Notes under the pieces: model-generated
What the model saw: the letters and a program-made list of their open reading frames with translations, nothing else
The model's database searches: none
Told to the model about the DNA's origin: nothing
Origin: an uncultured Gammaproteobacteria bacterium
Lineage (GTDB): Bacteria > Patescibacteriota > Patescibacteriia > Magasanikbacterales > UBA922
Assembly (NCBI GenBank): GCA_964522405.1
Contig: CAZFTR010000002.1
Span: 8,032-72,031 of the forward strand
DNA: 64,000 nt
Direction: 5' to 3'
Made by a program: the position numbers and the translations under genes
Part shown: positions 1,642-20,094 of the stretch, piece after piece
Numbering within the stretch: the stretch's first letter is position 1
Layout of the letters: the number at the start of each line of letters is the position of its first letter

Positions 1642-3642
1642 ATGTTCAAGCATTCTAAAAAGTTTTTCTTAACAAGCTTATTAATTTTGCTTTCTTTTGT
1701 TTTTTTAGCAAAAGATGTTAATACTAGTCATAGCAATTATCCCATGAAAGCAAATTATTACCTTGCCCAATTGAAAGACTCCCCAAGTTTTATTGAGGAA
1801 ATTTCAAAATATGACCTGCTTATTTTGACACCCAGTCAAATATACACTCACCCAATAGTGATAAGTAAAATTAAAAAAGCAAATCCAGATATAATCATCT
1901 TGGCTTATGTTCCGAGTCAAAGTTACAATACCAGATATTGGTATTCAAGTCCGGTTTACAGACATTTAAAACCAAAGAAAACCTGGTGGCTGCGTGATTC
2001 TTCAGGTAATCCTATTTCTTCTTGGAAAAATATCAGAAATACTAATATGAGCGAGGAGTGGTCTGATGATTTTCTGGCATTTGTGAACAAGCAAATCGCG
2101 TCTATAAAATATGTTGATGGGATATTTTTTGATATGGTTTCTCATAATATTTCTTGGATAAATCATGGTGATATTGATATAAATCAAGATGGTAAAAAAG
2201 ACACCCCAGAGTTAGTTGATGCAATTTGGAAAAAGAGAACAGAGTATTTTTTTAAAAAAGCAAAGCAGGATTTGAAAACAGACTTAATTGTTATAAATGG
2301 AACTTCAGAGAGTTTTCTTCAAGAGTTTGTAAATGGAAGAATGTTTGAAAATTTTCCAACTCCTTGGGAAGGTGATGGAACCTGGTCAACTATTATGAAT
2401 CGATTGGTTAAAAACATAGAACTAAATCAAACTCCAAAGACCATGATCATAAATAGTAATACTGCAAATACCGGTAAACAAGACGATTATCAAACCATGC
2501 GTTTTGGTCTAACCAGTGCGCTTTTAGAAGATGCCTATTTTTCATTTGATTTTGGTGATGAGAATCATGGACAGCTTTGGTATTATGATGAATATGATGT
2601 TGACTTAGGAGATCCCCAATCTGAATCTTTTTCTGAAAAACAATTATCAAAATATGTCCCGGATATTTGGCGACGTGATTTTGAAAATGGAATTTCTGTA
2701 ATAAACAGTACTTATCAAAAAAGATTGGTTGATCTTGGTGGTGAATATGAAAAAATCTATGGTACTCAAGATAGGCAGGTAAATGATGGCTCAATTGTTT
2801 CAGAAGTTGAACTTGATTCAAACGATGGGATTATTTTATTAAAAACTTTTTCAAATTTTAAAAACTTACTTTTTAAAAATGGATCTTTTGCTAGATTTTT
2901 TGATGATACCGGAAGAAGATTGAGAAATGGTTTCTTTGTTTTTGAAAAAAAATATCCTGGCGGGCAGTATATTGCTCATCTTGATATGAATGGTGATCAG
3001 AAAGAAGACCTGGTTTTGCTCAGAGGTAATAAATTAGTTGTTTTGCGTCATGATGGTATGAGACTGATGAGTAAGTATCCATATGGCGCCAGCTACAAAG
3101 GTCAGATAAAATTATCTATTGGTGACATTGATAAAAATGGAAAAATGGAAATTGTTGTTGCACCAGGTAAGGGAAGTTCAGCTCCAATAAAAATATACTC
3201 AACTTATGGAACAGTTAAAAAGGATCATTGGTATCCGTTCGGAGAAGGTTACAGAGGTGGGTATAGTATTTCCATCAGTGATTTTGGAGAAGAAAATTCA
3301 GAAATTTCAATTGGTACGGGAGTTGGTTTAGAGCCTCGAGTTTATTCTTATGATGGTGATTATAATTTAAAAAGGCATCTCTTAGTTTTCGAAAGAGATT
3401 TTCGTGGTGGAATAAATTTAGCTTCAGGAGACTTAAATGGTGATGGTATAGATGAGTTAGTTGTTGGTGCTGGTGTTGGTAAAAAACCAATTATAAAAAT
3501 ATTTGATAAATTTGGAACTCAGATTTCTTCGTTTGAGGCATACCAGACTAATTCAAAATCAGGAATAGATGTGGGGGTGATGGATATTAATTTTGATGGC
3601 ATTGAAGATATTGTTTCTTTTTCTTCCGGGCTTGATAGATAG
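1642..3642 (+). CDS. secreted protein: GH114-like TIM-barrel glycoside-hydrolase-like N-domain plus C-terminal FG-GAP/VCBS repeats
   Basis: N-terminal signal/TM. N-domain has LAYVPSQSY...WWLRDSSGNPISSW...VDGIFFDMV spacing resembling endo-alpha-1,4-polygalactosaminidase-like (GH114/TM1410) proteins. C-terminus has four FG-GAP-like motifs (DMNGDQKEDLVLL, DIDKNGKMEIVVAPG, DLNGDGIDELVVGAG, DINFDGIEDIV). Confidence 0.6.
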   Translation: MFKHSKKFFLTSLLILLSFVFLAKDVNTSHSNYPMKANYYLAQLKDSPSFIEEISKYDLLILTPSQIYTHPIVISKIKKANPDIIILAYVPSQSYNTRYWYSSPVYRHLKPKKTWWLRDSSGNPISSWKNIRNTNMSEEWSDDFLAFVNKQIASIKYVDGIFFDMVSHNISWINHGDIDINQDGKKDTPELVDAIWKKRTEYFFKKAKQDLKTDLIVINGTSESFLQEFVNGRMFENFPTPWEGDGTWSTIMNRLVKNIELNQTPKTMIINSNTANTGKQDDYQTMRFGLTSALLEDAYFSFDFGDENHGQLWYYDEYDVDLGDPQSESFSEKQLSKYVPDIWRRDFENGISVINSTYQKRLVDLGGEYEKIYGTQDRQVNDGSIVSEVELDSNDGIILLKTFSNFKNLLFKNGSFARFFDDTGRRLRNGFFVFEKKYPGGQYIAHLDMNGDQKEDLVLLRGNKLVVLRHDGMRLMSKYPYGASYKGQIKLSIGDIDKNGKMEIVVAPGKGSSAPIKIYSTYGTVKKDHWYPFGEGYRGGYSISISDFGEENSEISIGTGVGLEPRVYSYDGDYNLKRHLLVFERDFRGGINLASGDLNGDGIDELVVGAGVGKKPIIKIFDKFGTQISSFEAYQTNSKSGIDVGVMDINFDGIEDIVSFSSGLDR

Positions 3643-3763
3643 TTTCTAAAATTAGAGTTAATATTTATTTAATGTTTTTGATTGACAGGTTTTATCTTTT
3701 TGATACAATGTAATTAAAGGGAACTGCTGATAGTTAAACTATTGGTTATCTATTCTTACTACT

Positions 3764-3791
3764 AAAAAACTGTCCATTTGGGCAGTTTTTT
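3764..3791. terminator. bidirectional rho-independent terminator
   Basis: An A-run, then a hairpin of stem CTGTCC/GGGCAG (one G.T pair) with loop ATTT, then a T-run. Lies between convergent genes. Confidence 0.6.
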
Positions 3792-3833
3792 AGTTTAAGG
3801 ATTATTTAATCGTGTTTTTTGTACAATGATATT

Positions 3834-3978
3834 GGTGGATTTTGGGTCAGTAGTTTAATTGGTAAAATAGTTCCTTTGGTAAGAAAAGATCGGAGTTTCC
3901 CGACTCGATGTCGGGATCCCGATGACCATTCGCTTTTAAAAAACAAGTATCGGGACAATTCTCCGCTGATCCACCATC
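3834..3978 (+). ncRNA. tRNA-like structured RNA candidate (non-canonical; possibly pseudo-tRNA, intron-containing tRNA or tmRNA-like fragment)
   Basis: GGGTCAG (3844-3850) pairs with CTGATCC (3966-3972) as a 7-bp acceptor-like stem with one G.T pair, followed by discriminator A and an encoded CCA (3973-3976). A D-arm-like TA GTTT AATTGGTA AAAT with GG in the loop sits at 3851-3868. CGGAG (3891-3895) pairs with CTCCG (3961-3965). Extra helices include TCCCGAT (3918-3924) with ATCGGGA (3949-3955) and an outer GGTGGAT (3834-3840) with ATCCACC (3969-3975). The anticodon arm cannot be folded canonically and the total length is about 133-145 nt. The element is flanked by two terminators and is more G+C-rich than its surroundings. 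Confidence 0.35.
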
Positions 3979-4007
3979 AAAAAACACCTATTTGCTAGGT
4001 GTTTTTT
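3978..4007. terminator. bidirectional rho-independent terminator
   Basis: A7, then stem CACCTA with loop TTTGC and stem TAGGTG (6 perfect bp), then T6. Sits downstream of both the tRNA-like element (+) and the GT4 gene (-). Confidence 0.7.
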
Positions 4008-4027
4008 AATATTTTTGATTATTCATT

Positions 4028-5206
4028 TTAAATATCTTGATGTCTGGTTTTCAAAGATTTCAATTTAACCGGTTTGATATTTTGGTATAGTTTGATAATT
4101 TTTGGAATTGTACTATCCCAACTGTACTCAACTTGAATTGTTTTTCGATTTTGTTCAATTATAGTTTCCTTTTCTTCTTTTGATATTTGCATGAATTCGT
4201 AAATCGCTCTCACAATATCATTAACATTATTTTCTGTAAATATCATTCTGCTATCTTTGATAAGCTCAAGATGTTCTGCAATATTTGAAACCAGGGCAGG
4301 GGTTCCATAGTTCATAGCATCAAGCACTGTAATAGGTAGTCCTTCATTCATGGATGGGTGAACGAGCGCCATTGCATTTGAATACAATTCTTTCAGTATT
4401 TCTCCGGATTGAAAATCAGTAAAAATTATATCGTTACAAATACCTGCTTGTTTTTGAAGTGATGAAACATATTCATCTGTGTAAACAGATCCGCCAACAA
4501 TTGCAAGTTTAAGATTTTTGATTTCCAAGTCATCTTTGTATTCTCTTTTTAAATTACAAAATGCTTCCACAAGCAAGTGCGCGCCTTTGTGAGGAATTAA
4601 GCGCGATATCATGGTAATGTATTTACCTTTTTTTAATCCAAATTCTTTTATTAGTGTTGACCCGGAATCCAGTTTGCTTGGTTTTACAGCATTTGGTATA
4701 CAGTGGGTTTGTTTATCAAATTCTTTTAAACAATATCTTTCCAGGCTTCTTGATATGGTAATTGTTTCATGAGCAAAAGTACAAGCTGACCATTCACCAA
4801 TATGCAAGACAATTCTAGCAAATAAACCCCATTTTTTGTGGTATCTGTCGATTGAGTGAAAGGTTGTAACTACTTTTGTCTTGGGTGCAAAGATTCTAGG
4901 TATCCAAGAGAGAAGAGATGGTCCAACGCCGTGGTAGTGAATTACATCATATTTTTGGAAAACTGCATGGAGAGAAGAAGCAAGAACATGAGTTATGGTA
5001 TCAAAATGTTTAGTGTGAATACTTGGAATGTTGATTGTTTCTACTCCATCAATATTTCCTTCTCTATTTTTGGTATACCAGCCACGATTATAAACAGCAA
5101 CTTGATGTCCAGCTTTAACAAGGTGCTTTGAAAGCCCTTGTACATGTTGCTCAACACCGCCGAAGCTGGCTGGCATTCCTTTTTGTCCGATCATTGCAAT
5201 CTTCAT
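4028..5206 (-). CDS. glycosyltransferase family 4 (GT4)
   Basis: MKIAMIGQKGMPASFGGVEQHV and GT4 C-terminal motifs. The ORF-track start at 5266 is a 20-aa extension. The internal ATG at 5206 lies just downstream of a near-consensus promoter (TTGACA 5245-5240, 17-nt spacer, TAGAGT 5222-5217 on the minus strand), so 5206 is taken as the start. Confidence 0.85.
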   Translation of the reverse strand: MKIAMIGQKGMPASFGGVEQHVQGLSKHLVKAGHQVAVYNRGWYTKNREGNIDGVETINIPSIHTKHFDTITHVLASSLHAVFQKYDVIHYHGVGPSLLSWIPRIFAPKTKVVTTFHSIDRYHKKWGLFARIVLHIGEWSACTFAHETITISRSLERYCLKEFDKQTHCIPNAVKPSKLDSGSTLIKEFGLKKGKYITMISRLIPHKGAHLLVEAFCNLKREYKDDLEIKNLKLAIVGGSVYTDEYVSSLQKQAGICNDIIFTDFQSGEILKELYSNAMALVHPSMNEGLPITVLDAMNYGTPALVSNIAEHLELIKDSRMIFTENNVNDIVRAIYEFMQISKEEKETIIEQNRKTIQVEYSWDSTIPKIIKLYQNIKPVKLKSLKTRHQDI

Positions 5207-5216
5207 AGGATAGATT

Positions 5217-5245
5217 ACTCTAGCATGAATTATTCTATTTGTCAA
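5217..5245 (-). promoter_or_regulatory. sigma70-like promoter for the GT4 gene (TTGACA-17-TAGAGT)
   Basis: Read directly on the minus strand. The -10 element ends about 10 nt before the ATG at 5206, giving a very short leader. Confidence 0.5.
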
Positions 5246-5332
5246 TGGTTTAAATATAGTTTTCAAATCTGATTCCTTTGCTCAGATTTTCTCCTCTTTT
5301 CACCAATAGTTTTGATGAAAATAGGGGATTGG

Positions 5333-5408: not shown

Positions 5409-8400
5409 TTACTGGTGCGTGACCCAGCCGGAGCACTGCGGGGGCGCAGTGCCGCCCGACCAGCACTGGAACTTCAGCGCCGGCTTGGAGTCGTCGCAGT
5501 CGCCGAGCTGCTTGGTCGCTCCGTCGTAGTCGGCGTCCTTGGACGAACCGGTGCACTCGGCGTTCGAGGCTTGCGTGTCGTAGAGGCACGCGAACTCCGG
5601 CGAGAGCGACGGGTCTGCTCCGACCTCGGAGGGGATCACGCAGGGCATGGCGCAGCCGTGCGTGTTGGTGTATCCCTCCGGGGTGCCGGTCGTGAGACCG
5701 ACGAGGAAGCAGTCCTTGAAGCTATCGCAGGCGTTGCCCAGGCCGTCGTTGTCGAGGTCGGTCTGGTCCGGGTTGGCCGTGAGCGGGCAGTTGTCGGAGT
5801 TGTCCAGGACGTTGTCGTTGTCGTCGTCCTGGTCCAGCTCGTCGCACTGCCCGTCCGCGTCTGCGTCCGGTTTGTCTGCGTGCTTGCAGCCCGAGTCCGG
5901 GTCGCAGGAGTCGTCCGTGCAGGGGTTCTCGTCGTCGCAGGAGACCGAAGTCCCAGCGCACGAGCTGTCCTCGCAGAAGTCCTCCGCGGTGCACTCGTTG
6001 CCGTCGTCACACGGCTCGGAGTTGCTCTCGAACACGCAGCCCGAGTCCGGGTCGCAGGAGTCGTCCGTGCAGGGGTTCTCGTCGTCGCAGGAGACCGAAG
6101 TCCCAGCGCACGAGCTGTCCTCGCAGAAGTCCTCCGCGGTGCACTCGTTGCCGTCGTCACACGGCTTGCCAGTCTCCGGGAACTCGGCGCACCAGCCATG
6201 GTCGCCGCCGTTCGGCACGCAGGTCGTGACCACGCAGGGGTTCTCGCTCACCTGGCAGTCGGCGAGCTCGAGGCAGCAGTTGTTGATCTGCTCGGAGGAG
6301 CAGATCCCGCTCTCCATGTCACAGGAGTCCTCGGTGCACGCGTCCCCATCGTCGCAGTCCAGGTCTGCTTCACAGCAGTCCGAAACTTCCTGACCCTTGC
6401 ACTCGCCGCCTGAGCACTTGTCGTTCTCGGTGCACATCACTCCGTCGTCGCAGGTCACGCTGTTCGGCGTGTTCTGGCACTTGCCCGACGAGGTGTTGCA
6501 GAAGTCGTCCGTGCAGGGGTTGGAGTCGTCGCAGGAGACCGAAGCCCCCTTGCACTCGCCACCCTGGCAGAAGTCCTCCGCGGTGCAGGAGTTGCCGTCG
6601 TCACACGGCAGCACATTTGGAACTGACAAGCAGCCCGAGTCCGAGTCGCAGAAGTCGTCCGTGCAGGGGTTGGAGTCGTCGCAGGAGACCGAAGCCCCCT
6701 TGCACTCGCCACCCTGGCAGAAGTCCTCCGCGGTGCACTCGTTGCCGTCGTCACACGGCTCGGAGTTGGGCGTGGACACGCAGCCCGAGTCCTGCTCGCA
6801 GTCGTAGTCGTAGCAGGGCTCACCATCGTCGCAGGTGAGCGGGATGCCGGACTGGCATCCGTCCTCAGCGTGACAGGTCTCAAGACCATTGCACGCATCG
6901 GCGTCATCGCACTCGACCTGGGCCCCGAGCACGCATGAGCCGCTTTGGACGTCGCAGGTCTCCACGCCGTTGCACATGTTCGAGTCGTCGCAGTCTGCGT
7001 TTTCCTCGCAGCAGTTTGGGAGTGGAACTCCCGACTGGCAACCCAGAACCGGGTTGCACTGCTCGACCCCGGTGCACTCGTTGCCGTCGTCGCAGACGAG
7101 CGGGATGCCGGGGAGGCACTTGCCGTTCTCGACGTCACAGCTCTCCGCGCCGTTGCACATGTCCGAGTCGTCGCAGTCCGCGTCCACGTCACAGCACTCG
7201 TCCACCTCGGTGAACTGGCACTGATTGTTGACGCAGCTGTCCTCGCTGCACATGTCCGAGTCGTCGCAGTCCGCGTCCACGTCGCAGCAGTTGGGGCCGG
7301 AGGCGATGAAGGTGCAGGCCATCTCGATGGTGTCACAGACATCGAGCGTGCAGGCCGAACCGTCGTCGCAGTCCGCGTGCTTGACACAGCAGTTCTCGAC
7401 CGGGATGGCGAGGCACTCGCCGCTTTCCGAGTCGCAGGAGTCAGTGGTGCACGGGTCTGCGTCGTCGCAGACGATGTCCATGCCTTCCTGGCAGCCTTTG
7501 GTGCTGTCACAGGTCTCGACTCCGTTGCAGGCGTCTCCGTCGTTGCACTTGAGCAGGATGCCGGTCTGGCACTCGCCCTCGTGGCAGGAGTCGTCCTCGG
7601 TGCACGCGTCCCCGTCGTCGCAGGAGGCCCCATTGACTGGGGTGAATTCCTCCTGGTTGACTTTCGGCTTGCAGGCCAGACAGGGGTTGCCGGGGTGGAT
7701 TTTATCGCCCTCCCAGCAGTTGGCCCCGATCAAGCACCACCCAGGCGTCGACGTGAACTCGCACTCACCGGAGCCTTCGTTGTCGCAGCTCTCGGTGGTG
7801 CAGCCCGAGCCGTCATCGCACCACTCCCGGTACTTGTTCTCGGCCGTGCCGTGGTGGATGCACTCGCCGGTTCCCATGCAGTTGTCAAGCGTGCAGGGGA
7901 TGCCGTCATCGCAGAGCGCCACCGAGTAGTCAAAGTTGTTCGTGCAGCCCGCGTCCGGGTCGCACAGCTCCACCTTGCATCCGGATGAACCGGGGCAGGT
8001 GACTGTGGAACCCAGGCATTTGCCGGCCTGGCAGGCGTCGTTTTCGGTGCAGGCGTTGCCGTCGTTGCACGGCGCCGTGTTCACCTCGTAGCTGCACCCG
8101 ACGTCCGGGTCGCACGAGTCGCTGGTGCACTGGTCACCGTCGTCGCAGTCCACGTCCTCGCCGATGCAGATCCCGTCCTCGCACATGTCGTTGACAGTGC
8201 AGGGATCGTCGTCGTTGCAGGACTTGGAATTGGGCTGGTGCTGGCACTGGCCCTCGACGCACTTGTCATCCGTGCACTCGTTGTCGTCGTTGCAGTCGTT
8301 GTCGCAGTTCGGCATGCCGGTCTCGCCCTGGGCGTCCTTGCTGTCGAACGGCTTGACCGCCACGTGCGGGGAGCACAGGTTGACGCCGGCGACGTCGCCC

Positions 8401-8507
8401 GACACCGCGTCCGCAGGGACACAGTCCTCACTGCCGACTTCACAGCCGATAAAAGTGATGGCGATGGCGATGGCGATGGCGACGATGCTCTTGTTCTCGG
8501 TCTTCAT
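5409..8507 (-). CDS. giant cysteine- and aspartate-rich repeat lipoprotein (Dictyostelium-type CTDC-like 4-Cys repeats plus C-terminal thrombospondin type-3 Ca-binding repeats), encoded by a high-GC island
   Basis: 1032 aa with an ATG start. N-terminus MKTENKSIVAIAIAIAITFIGCEV has a signal peptide and a lipobox-like IGC. About 35 tandem units fit C-x-D-x-N-x-C-T-x-D-x-C-x4-G-C-x3-P (for example SCDDSNPCTDDFCDSDSGCLSVPNV). C-terminal DADADGQCDELDQDDDNDNVLDNSDNCPLTANPDQTDLDNDGLGNACD is a classic TSP3 pattern. G+C is about two-thirds against about one-third in the flanks. Antisense ORFs here are artefacts of the GC richness. Confidence 0.8.
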   Translation of the reverse strand: MKTENKSIVAIAIAIAITFIGCEVGSEDCVPADAVSGDVAGVNLCSPHVAVKPFDSKDAQGETGMPNCDNDCNDDNECTDDKCVEGQCQHQPNSKSCNDDDPCTVNDMCEDGICIGEDVDCDDGDQCTSDSCDPDVGCSYEVNTAPCNDGNACTENDACQAGKCLGSTVTCPGSSGCKVELCDPDAGCTNNFDYSVALCDDGIPCTLDNCMGTGECIHHGTAENKYREWCDDGSGCTTESCDNEGSGECEFTSTPGWCLIGANCWEGDKIHPGNPCLACKPKVNQEEFTPVNGASCDDGDACTEDDSCHEGECQTGILLKCNDGDACNGVETCDSTKGCQEGMDIVCDDADPCTTDSCDSESGECLAIPVENCCVKHADCDDGSACTLDVCDTIEMACTFIASGPNCCDVDADCDDSDMCSEDSCVNNQCQFTEVDECCDVDADCDDSDMCNGAESCDVENGKCLPGIPLVCDDGNECTGVEQCNPVLGCQSGVPLPNCCEENADCDDSNMCNGVETCDVQSGSCVLGAQVECDDADACNGLETCHAEDGCQSGIPLTCDDGEPCYDYDCEQDSGCVSTPNSEPCDDGNECTAEDFCQGGECKGASVSCDDSNPCTDDFCDSDSGCLSVPNVLPCDDGNSCTAEDFCQGGECKGASVSCDDSNPCTDDFCNTSSGKCQNTPNSVTCDDGVMCTENDKCSGGECKGQEVSDCCEADLDCDDGDACTEDSCDMESGICSSEQINNCCLELADCQVSENPCVVTTCVPNGGDHGWCAEFPETGKPCDDGNECTAEDFCEDSSCAGTSVSCDDENPCTDDSCDPDSGCVFESNSEPCDDGNECTAEDFCEDSSCAGTSVSCDDENPCTDDSCDPDSGCKHADKPDADADGQCDELDQDDDNDNVLDNSDNCPLTANPDQTDLDNDGLGNACDSFKDCFLVGLTTGTPEGYTNTHGCAMPCVIPSEVGADPSLSPEFACLYDTQASNAECTGSSKDADYDGATKQLGDCDDSKPALKFQCWSGGTAPPQCSGWVTHQ
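5886..6166. repeat. perfect tandem duplication (131 identical bp, period 150 bp) inside the Cys-rich gene
   Basis: 5886-6016 is identical to 6036-6166 when read directly. This duplicates a 50-aa double CTDC unit (SEPCDDGNECTAEDFCEDSSCAGTSVSCDDENPCTDDSCDPDSGC). Confidence 0.85.
6498..6738. repeat. second perfect tandem duplication (~91 bp identical, period 150 bp) inside the Cys-rich gene
   Basis: About 6498-6588 is identical to 6648-6738. The protein repeats CDDGNSCTAEDFCQGGECKGASVSCDDSNPCTDDFC twice. Confidence 0.8.
8457..8480. repeat. (GATGGC)4 hexanucleotide microsatellite in the signal-peptide coding region
   Basis: gatggcgatggcgatggcgatggc encodes the AIAIAIAI stretch of the signal peptide. 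The in-frame 6-bp unit could vary in copy number. Confidence 0.7.
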
Positions 8508-20060: not shown

Positions 20061-20094
20061 CACCCCGACTTAGGTCGGGGTGTTTTGTTTTTTT
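20061..20094 (+). terminator. rho-independent terminator
   Basis: Perfect 9-bp stem CACCCCGAC with loop TTAG and GTCGGGGTG, followed by TTTTGTTTTTTT. Confidence 0.8.

Follow-up and report, generated by a model that had tools for sequence, protein, structure and literature searches.

A tRNA-like gene in a Magasanikbacterales genome, probably inactivated in its T-loop by a twin-hairpin palindromic element found across several bacterial phyla

The stretch of DNA analysed here, called the window, is 64,000 nucleotides (nt) long and covers positions 8,032 to 72,031 of contig CAZFTR010000002.1 (assembly GCA_964522405.1) from an uncultured bacterium placed by GTDB in the Magasanikbacterales of the Patescibacteriota. 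Reading of the sequence showed a tRNA-like gene of 133 nt on the forward strand (3844-3976), interrupted within the T-loop by an insert of 58 nt (3898-3955) that is made of two perfect 7-bp hairpins side by side. The gene stands alone between two convergent open reading frames (ORFs), 1642-3642 (+) and 4028-5266 (-), as an earlier note made from the sequence had stated. The parts of the gene and of the insert are as follows.

3844..3897 (+): tRNA 5' part, standard positions 1-55, with the acceptor 5' strand, D-arm, anticodon arm, variable region, T-stem 5' strand and the TT of the T-loop
3871-3886 (+): degenerate anticodon arm, from the sequence and from ARAGORN after excision
3896-3897 (+): TT, 5' half of the T-loop, read from the sequence
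3898..3916 (no strand): hairpin 1, TCCCGAC-TCGAT-GTCGGGA, stem 3898-3904/3910-3916, from a pattern and inverted-repeat search
3917..3955 (no strand): hairpin 2, TCCCGAT-25 nt-ATCGGGA, stem 3917-3923/3949-3955
3956..3976 (+): tRNA 3' part, positions 56-76, with the T-loop CAATT, CTCCG, CTGATCC, A73 and CCA

The acceptor stem has 7 bp, one of them G-T (GGGTCAG 3844-3850 with CTGATCC 3966-3972), and is followed by the discriminator A73 at 3973 and an encoded CCA at 3974-3976. The D-arm (3851-3868) begins with TA (U8-A9) and has the stem GTTT/AAAT and the loop AATTGGTA, with the tertiary bases A14, G18, G19 and A21 all in place, and the T-stem has 5 bp (CGGAG 3891-3895 with CTCCG 3961-3965). The tRNA 3' end (T-stem, acceptor pairing, A73 and CCA) and the textbook D-arm described in the earlier note were all found in the sequence. 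Both helices that it named, CGGAG/CTCCG and TCCCGAT/ATCGGGA, are also present, together with the 7-bp hairpin TCCCGAC/GTCGGGA that it did not spell out, and the extra core that it put at about 55 nt is real, with a length of 58 nt.

On the intact 64-kb window, ARAGORN called no tRNA or tmRNA, and Rfam gave no family at the gathering score; in a relaxed Rfam search, the general tRNA model (RF00005) scored 21.4 bits, below its gathering score of 29, with an alignment to the 5' part only. Every interval of 54-63 nt around the core was then deleted in turn and ARAGORN was re-run. Exact deletion of 3898-3955 gave CGGAG-TTCAATT-CTCCG, a canonical T-arm (T54, T55, C56, A57, A58), and a tRNA of 75 nt with G53-C61 in the T-stem was called at the default threshold. 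This excised tRNA has a 7-bp acceptor stem, a 4-bp D-stem with a GG D-loop, a 5-bp T-stem, the discriminator and CCA, and the restored T-loop and the ARAGORN call bear out a tRNA with an unusual insertion, which was one of the candidates put forward before.

The anticodon arm is the sole defective part of the excised tRNA, which ARAGORN reported as tRNA-?(Pro or Thr)(gg). The weak stem (TTCCT/AGAAA) can be drawn in two ways, with a loop of 6 nt and an internal C.A mismatch, as in the ARAGORN call, or with 3 bp and a 7-nt loop; the readings with a 7-nt loop, UGG or GGU, leave just 2-3 Watson-Crick pairs in the stem. When the excised sequence was examined with ARAGORN for a 5-bp anticodon stem and a 7-nt loop with a readable anticodon, none was obtained. 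The statement that there is no foldable anticodon arm was slightly too strong, for a weak arm exists. The nearest of 82 tRNAs in the fetched loci was a Jorgensenbacteria tRNA-Thr(GGU) (L056), whose anticodon loop and 3' stem (TTGGTAAGAAAG) are almost identical to those of the window; the tRNA appears closest in identity to Thr-GGU and may also be read as Pro-UGG. The + strand here folds more stably than shuffles (z = -3.2). Its minimum-free-energy fold differs from the cloverleaf (-39.5 versus -30.8 kcal/mol), and this was given no weight because real tRNAs often fail to give the cloverleaf as their minimum-free-energy fold.

The insertion point is GAGTT^CAATTC (the caret marks the junction), between T-loop positions 55 and 56. 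The two hairpins meet directly at the centre GGGATCCC, and the insert is an exact match to the family pattern given below. In the window copy, the pairs at position 7 are C-G in hairpin 1 and T-A in hairpin 2, and the stems end there. The twin TCCCGA..TCGGGA pattern was found in 0 of 100 shuffles. The copy is unique in the 64-kb window, where no further copies or half-copies of the element were found; a hairpin at 20063-20080, considered as a second copy, was rejected as an ordinary terminator. By inspection, there was no bulge-helix-bulge at the junctions (TT and CAATT lie between the T-stem and the 7-bp hairpins, with no 3-4-3 arrangement), and no group I intron or self-cleaving ribozyme from Rfam matched in 3700-4100 even at E <= 10.

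A genome collection was scanned with the exact pattern TCCCGA-N3-30-TCGGGATCCCGA-N10-40-TCGGGA, and all family counts given here come from the matches listed. The pattern is present at no fewer than 120 genome loci besides the window, against an arithmetical chance expectation of about 2-10 loci (about 2 at 50% G+C, fewer in AT-rich genomes) for 596 Gb, 868 gap combinations and 24 fixed bases. The hosts among these matches are mostly Patescibacteria (Candidate Phyla Radiation, CPR), Omnitrophota, Margulisiibacteriota/Saganbacteria/WOR-1 and Planctomycetota-labelled bins; most are AT-rich CPR or Omnitrophota genomes, and a few matches in high-G+C genomes are probably due to chance. The element occurs in two size classes, one of 42-65 nt (TCCCGACG..GTCGGGATCCCGAC..CGTCGGGA), mainly in CPR genomes, and one of 74-76 nt (TCCCGAATG..CTTCGGGATCCCGAAG..CATTCGGGA), mainly in Omnitrophota. 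The layout of the window copy, a short hairpin followed by a long AT-rich one, is the common one, and its closest counterparts among the matches are in L057 (Saccharibacteria), L069 (Margulisiibacteriota) and L054.

The seventh stem pair is Watson-Crick in 82% of the hairpins of the family copies and the eighth in 8%. In an alternative register, in which the 5' arm of hairpin 1 pairs with the 3' arm of hairpin 2, position 8 is complementary in 69%, so the element is a nested palindrome with its twin-hairpin and single-long-hairpin registers both partly conserved. The complementarity of position 8 within the hairpins is also well below chance, which points to a constraint on a switch between cruciform and long hairpin, or on a protein-binding mismatch. 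The flanks of the element give the logo ..T(T/A)G before it and C(A/T)A.. after it. No consistent target-site duplication was seen in the family, with a possible TA duplication in only some of the 74-76-nt Omnitrophota-type copies. The element is not covered by any family of Rfam 15, and full-text literature searches of incomplete coverage turned up no account of it, and none of GIY-YIG genes set directly against tRNAs in CPR or Omnitrophota; the family is provisionally regarded as undescribed.

Two further observations concern the distribution of the family. In one metagenome-assembled genome (DRR093004_bin.13), tandem arrays of an element-like hairpin unit of about 48 nt, TCCCGAAATCCTTCGGGA and TCCCGAGTTGTTTCATATTAAGTCTCGGGA head to tail, take the place of single insertions (L075 560-727, L143 1464-1623, L092 261-402, L076, L034 and L070). 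At L128 (reverse complement 1316-1382), a copy adjoins GGCATCCACCATACGCCCTT, which we take to be the reverse complement of the 5' end of 23S rRNA, and the family may also land in or beside rRNA genes.

Copies within real protein genes were all (11 of 11) of a length divisible by 3 and free of stop codons in the frame of the host, while a length divisible by 3 was found in 46 of the 114 remaining copies. Eight hosts were confirmed by Pfam: ribosomal protein L18, RpoA, MurB, SMC, a P-type ATPase, a PIF1 helicase, an M1 peptidase and an M17 peptidase. Retention in frame and without stops in essential proteins is a signature of selfish palindromic DNA that is kept in the transcript, as in the Rickettsia palindromic elements; it would be unnecessary if the element were spliced. 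L103 and L104, from AT-rich CPR genomes, were considered as out-of-frame coding copies and rejected as junk antisense ORFs.

tRNA genes are a frequent setting for the other copies, with 20 of the 124 copies at most 60 nt from an ARAGORN tRNA, against 3.3 expected under random placement in the same loci. The recurrent sites were found by aligning the joined flanks to the neighbouring tRNA. The D-arm site lies after tRNA nt 10-12 or 15-16 (TAG^CTCAG, AGCT^CAG, CTCAG^TTGG), and TAG^CTCAG is used in at least 12 loci. The T-loop site is GGTT^CAAGTCC in L030, L085 and L125, the same TT^CAA step as in the window, with the variants GGTTC^GAATCC or ^AACTCC in L101 and L100. What is interrupted is usually a piece of a tRNA beside an intact one, either a 5' piece (nt 1 to about 21) with the intact tRNA downstream of it or a 3' piece (nt about 45-76) with the intact tRNA upstream, and at least 20 copies have an uninterrupted copy of their joined flanks 20-300 nt away in the same orientation. 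Among the copies listed, exact excision gave an ARAGORN tRNA in the window, L090 and L088 only, and the interrupted tRNA copy of L090 is without the 5' acceptor strand. With respect to the host gene, the element takes either orientation at random (15 copies against 10 in tRNA contexts and 7 against 4 in coding ones).

A Saccharibacteria locus (L040, 421-660) carries a tRNA-Thr-like copy with three elements, which lie in the D-arm region, in the variable region and at the T-stem/T-loop step 53^54. This copy has a degenerate 8-nt anticodon loop and follows an intact tRNA-Thr(GGU) and a GIY-YIG gene, the first 25 nt of which are repeated after the interrupted tRNA copy.

The GIY-YIG profile (PF01541) was searched against all six-frame ORFs of the fetched loci, and the search of the flanks was aimed at GIY-YIG only. 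The proteins found have 80-95 amino acids (aa) and consist of the catalytic domain alone. A GIY-YIG gene lies between an element-bearing tRNA fragment and an intact tRNA in L040, L045, L053, L065, L086, L090, L102, L127 and L136. Its stop codon is the TAG of the tRNA's U8-A9-G10 (nt 8-10) in L053, L086 and L127, a TAG stop directly precedes the element in L045 and L090, and in L040 the ATG overlaps the CCA of tRNA-Thr. An adjacent intact tRNA, GIY-YIG gene or both are frequent in the family, though not universal. The tRNA-abutting genes are listed below.

L053, 6755-7033: GIY-YIG gene
L086, 5572-5748: GIY-YIG gene
L127, 714-968: GIY-YIG gene
L045, 6192-6479: GIY-YIG gene
L090, 660-968: GIY-YIG gene
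L040, 167-421: GIY-YIG gene

Judged from gene order, these tRNA/GIY-YIG units resemble a free-standing homing-endonuclease cassette that would enter tRNA genes at TAG^CTCAG and carry the missing piece of the tRNA, with the palindrome at a cassette junction that is not regenerated. The arrangement suggests, without proving it, that GIY-YIG nucleases create duplicated tRNA targets or mobilise the element. No GIY-YIG ORF was found in the 64-kb window, and no remnants of one in 3300-4400. A Margulisiibacteriota locus (L069, 100-1328) has three tandem GIY-YIG ORFs with an element at 804-864 within the array.

The genes and signals that flank the tRNA-like gene in the window are as follows.

1642-3642 (+): GHL15/FG-GAP gene, 666 aa, the upstream convergent ORF
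3764..3791 (no strand): A6-stem-T6 hairpin AAAAAACTGTCCATTTGGGCAGTTTTTT, an inverted repeat that looks like a bidirectional terminator for the GHL15 gene
3822..3827 (+): -10-like hexamer TACAAT, 16 nt 5' of tRNA position 1, read from the sequence
3979..4007 (no strand): hairpin with T-run, a bidirectional intrinsic terminator from the terminator scan, common to the tRNA-like gene and the GT4 gene
4028-5266 (-): GT4 glycosyltransferase gene, the downstream convergent ORF

Two terminators had been proposed around the gene. The one at 3979-4007 was called by the scan; the hairpin at 3764-3791 is present and received no call, as its A and T runs pair mutually. The enrichment in G+C noted before is real, with 0.38 in 3801-4000 and 0.27 and 0.25 on the two sides. 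The hexamer at 3822-3827 has no convincing -35 and was not reported by the promoter scan, and it is weak evidence for a promoter that the tRNA-like element may have of its own. A near-consensus sigma-70-like site at 3682-3709 (+), TTGACA-16-TACAAT with an upstream TG, sits between the GHL15 stop codon and the 3764-3791 hairpin so that its transcript would end after only about 80 nt if the hairpin does not leak; sigma-70-like sites were no more numerous in the region than in shuffles. The segment 3717-3760 looked complementary, as an antisense, to the 5' half of the tRNA, and this was no better than with shuffled sequence (p about 0.3).

Homologues of the 666-aa flanking protein were found in Candidatus Magasanikbacteria and other Patescibacteria, the best non-self one being 54% identical. 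Two sets of relatives retain the order radical-SAM, GT4, GHL15 and convergent GT4, and in these syntenic relatives the spacer has 170-220 nt and one terminator, with the tRNA-like element absent. The whole tRNA-like gene is thus lineage-specific at this position, and a covariation analysis of the locus is therefore impossible. Farther along, a 1032-aa ORF at 5409-8507 (-) has about 65% G+C, against about 32% for the genome, abounds in Cys/Asp repeats and matches Dicty_CTDC in Pfam (E = 2.5e-35). It lies between the GT4 and DUF11 genes and looks like a foreign insertion, because these two genes adjoin in the syntenic Magasanikbacteria locus L005.

Taken together, the locus is probably a tRNA gene copy that was inactivated by a 58-bp selfish palindromic element inserted between T-loop positions 55 and 56. 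The family would act at the DNA level, in the manner of a Rickettsia palindromic element (RPE) or a miniature inverted-repeat transposable element (MITE), and would prefer ..T(T/A)G^C(A/T)A.. steps, which the D-arm (TAG^CTCAG) and T-loop (GTT^CAA) words of tRNA genes would supply. It would survive only where it is tolerated, that is, in in-frame protein loops, in intergenic DNA and in redundant or partial tRNA copies, so that the tRNA bias would reflect both a target preference for the conserved D-arm/T-loop words and survivorship. Single-copy tRNA hits would be lethal, which would explain why the remaining tRNA copies are fragments and redundant genes. The most likely origin of the window gene is a tRNA copy, redundant or displaced, that was hit in the T-loop, with an intact isoacceptor gene presumably elsewhere in the genome. 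The element would be retained in the RNA, and hairpins between U55 and C56 would disrupt the elbow pairs G18-U55 and G19-C56; the tRNA elbow is used by RNase P, the ribosome and other factors. With two hairpins at the elbow and a degenerate anticodon arm, the product would be a pseudo-tRNA that is useless for decoding. Judging by the intact other stems, the CCA and the perfect hairpins, the event was recent, and these features leave some room for a non-decoding function; the RNA of the window is itself most likely a by-product.

Several points weigh against this reading. Outside the anticodon arm, none of the 16 stem pairs is lost, the gene encodes its CCA, and it lies between a -10-like hexamer and a terminator, as might be expected if selection still acted on it or if the insertion were very recent. 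The 64-kb window holds no intact partner tRNA and no GIY-YIG gene, and the claim of a redundant copy is presumptive because such a partner is missing there. Decay and conservation of the window gene cannot be told apart by measurement because the nearest homologue of the flanking protein is only 54% identical. The link between the element and GIY-YIG genes is correlative only, and the family proportions come from a biased sample, with one exact pattern and the matches listed only.

The perfect T-loop given by exact removal would also be expected if the 58 nt were an intervening sequence acting at the RNA level, in which the hairpins on the T-stem would form a symmetric three-way junction, a protein endonuclease would cut this junction at both bases and a ligase would rejoin the ends to a functional tRNA. 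The quasi-two-fold symmetry of the element, with arms conserved at both junctions, the GIY-YIG genes set against tRNA genes beside elements and the intactness of all stems other than that of the anticodon fit this as well. A prokaryotic Slx1-like GIY-YIG domain is fused to a TrmH tRNA methylase, and a role in RNA metabolism was suggested by its authors (PMC1564403), which was also counted in favour of splicing. Such splicing is nevertheless quite improbable. The constraint on the 11 protein-gene copies would be needless if they were spliced, orientation is random, and neither a bulge-helix-bulge nor a ribozyme or group I intron match was found; for these reasons a spliced intron, which the earlier note had listed as a candidate, is disfavoured. 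Moreover, the tRNA sequences that carry the element are mostly fragmentary or decayed and have an intact gene next to them, the anticodon arm of the window is defective with or without the insert, and the window has no GIY-YIG gene. That a protein endonuclease recognising both hairpin bases, with the tRNA-linked GIY-YIG/Slx1-like proteins as candidates, removes the element and leaves a working tRNA in the window is disfavoured by the evidence and very improbable. A functional RNA that keeps its insert is unlikely too. It would serve as a decoy, as an aminoacyl donor for cell-envelope synthesis or as a regulator, using its acceptor end while the T-loop insert and the odd anticodon arm keep it off the ribosome. 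Mismatches are confined to the anticodon stem, with the 16 other pairs, A73 and CCA intact, the gene stands on its own between terminators and has envelope glycosyltransferase genes as neighbours, and its fold is more stable than shuffles. However, two mismatches would fall in one stem in about 5% of cases by chance (5/21 x 4/20), the gene is not conserved in the syntenic relatives, and the metagenome and viral scans gave no homologue with the same exons. The insert, moreover, is a generic mobile repeat and not a structure specific to the locus; the earlier idea of a novel small RNA therefore misses the main point, namely that the core is a repeated DNA element at 120 or more other loci.

An attachment site was also considered, with the tRNA-like sequence as attB or an attL/attR remnant of the high-G+C island at 5409-8507. 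Integration into tRNA genes is common, and the island is 1.4 kb off and absent from the syntenic L005. This origin, which had likewise been put forward before, is extremely improbable: no second copy of the 3' or 5' segment of the tRNA was found in the window with up to 3 mismatches allowed, the GT4 gene, which is syntenic in relatives, comes between the gene and the island, and no integrase was seen adjoining. The proposed tmRNA-like fragment was excluded by ARAGORN and Rfam, and YrlA and other Rfam tRNA-like RNAs gave no match either. Fortuitous pairing in an AT-rich spacer has next to no chance of being right. It would agree with the missing Rfam gathering-score match, the blank ARAGORN result on the intact sequence and the relatives without the element, and the test named in the earlier note as its means of refutation did run this way, with no covariance-model match and no conservation in the syntenic relatives. 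Even so, the pairing is no accident, since what is conserved is the inserted element rather than the locus; all canonical tertiary-interaction bases are present, and fortuity is refuted by the shuffles of the twin-hairpin pattern (0 of 100), the default ARAGORN call after excision and the size of the family (at least 120 relatives). A phage origin was rejected, with no convincing viral or phage match to the element or the tRNA. An exon-anchored metagenome scan (D-loop, T-stem and T-loop halves with a gap of 45-75 nt) gave 14 matches, all unrelated chance ones; on viral contigs, the exon-anchored pattern gave 1 match, the uninterrupted T-arm and acceptor pattern none, and the element pattern 2, both unrelated; BLAST against phages gave only a 27-nt stretch in Lak megaphages that is not tRNA.

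The element is classified as a kind of selfish palindromic insertion, with its twin hairpins, cross-phylum spread, tRNA-site bias and GIY-YIG linkage as distinctive features. RPEs are short palindromic selfish DNA elements that lie in frame in conserved protein genes and are translated, occur also in RNA genes and have many copies and no internal transposase; they were reportedly described by Ogata and co-workers in 2000. The present element behaves alike, being in frame and stop-free in conserved protein genes (11 of 11), present in RNA genes, found in many copies and devoid of an internal transposase, and this likeness is one of behaviour, with no claim to membership by sequence. It differs from RPEs in the twin hairpin with fixed TCCCGA/TCGGGA arms and the GGGATCCC centre, in its hosts (CPR, Omnitrophota and Margulisiibacteriota, not Rickettsia), and in the strong bias to the tRNA D-arm and T-loop and the linkage to small GIY-YIG genes. 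With the repetitive extragenic palindromes (REPs), bacterial interspersed mosaic elements and REPINs, which are mobilised by RAYT transposases (Y1 HUH), and with bacterial MITEs, it shares hairpin units of 20-40 nt in inverted pairs, nested palindromy and a non-autonomous nature. REPs are extragenic, however, whereas this element lies inside protein and tRNA genes, and it differs from REPs and MITEs in having no consistent target-site duplication. No RAYT or other transposase was seen, though no search was aimed at one.

Non-canonical tRNA introns at D-arm and T-arm positions are known from archaea and the red alga Cyanidioschyzon (PMC3241643, PMC9602550), and the element is similar to them in its D-arm and T-loop positions, in the presence of several per tRNA (L040) and in the canonical tRNA restored by exact removal. 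Those introns are defined by a bulge-helix-bulge cut by EndA/TSEN, which is not found here, and the bacterial host, the in-frame protein copies and the mostly dead tRNA copies set the element apart. Group I introns of bacterial tRNAs are also intervening sequences in a bacterial tRNA gene, but they exceed 200 nt, have a catalytic core and occupy the anticodon loop, whereas the insert has 58 nt, lies in the T-loop and has no Rfam intron match. In phage T4, the GIY-YIG homing endonuclease SegB is encoded by a free-standing gene within the cluster of tRNA genes. As a GIY-YIG gene lodged among tRNA genes and acting on them, it offers a precedent for the tRNA/GIY-YIG units beside the elements. It is mentioned in PMC13096335. 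The genes described here differ from SegB in that they encode only a catalytic domain of 80-95 aa, are chromosomal in CPR and Omnitrophota, overlap the tRNA with their frames and are known from genes alone, and the window has none. It is possible, and is proposed here tentatively, that the element and the tRNA-abutting GIY-YIG genes form an undescribed class of mobile elements that targets tRNA genes across CPR, Omnitrophota and Margulisiibacteriota.

For the window, the finding accounts for the odd tRNA-like RNA by a tRNA gene copy that a mobile palindrome has disrupted; in CPR genomes, such genes will be overlooked or miscalled by tRNA finders. Removal of the element from RNA by a protein, if it took place after all, would amount to a system of protein-dependent tRNA introns in Bacteria. 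Of greater weight is the broader finding that several deeply separated phyla of ultra-small bacteria have in common one short palindrome with invariant arms, which lies in frame inside essential genes (L18, RNA polymerase alpha, MurB and SMC) and repeatedly marks the most conserved words of tRNA genes. If confirmed, the family would be a counterpart of RPEs in streamlined free-living or episymbiotic bacteria and a marker of horizontal exchange between these lineages, and it might give a handle on the role of the abundant GIY-YIG proteins that consist of the catalytic domain only.

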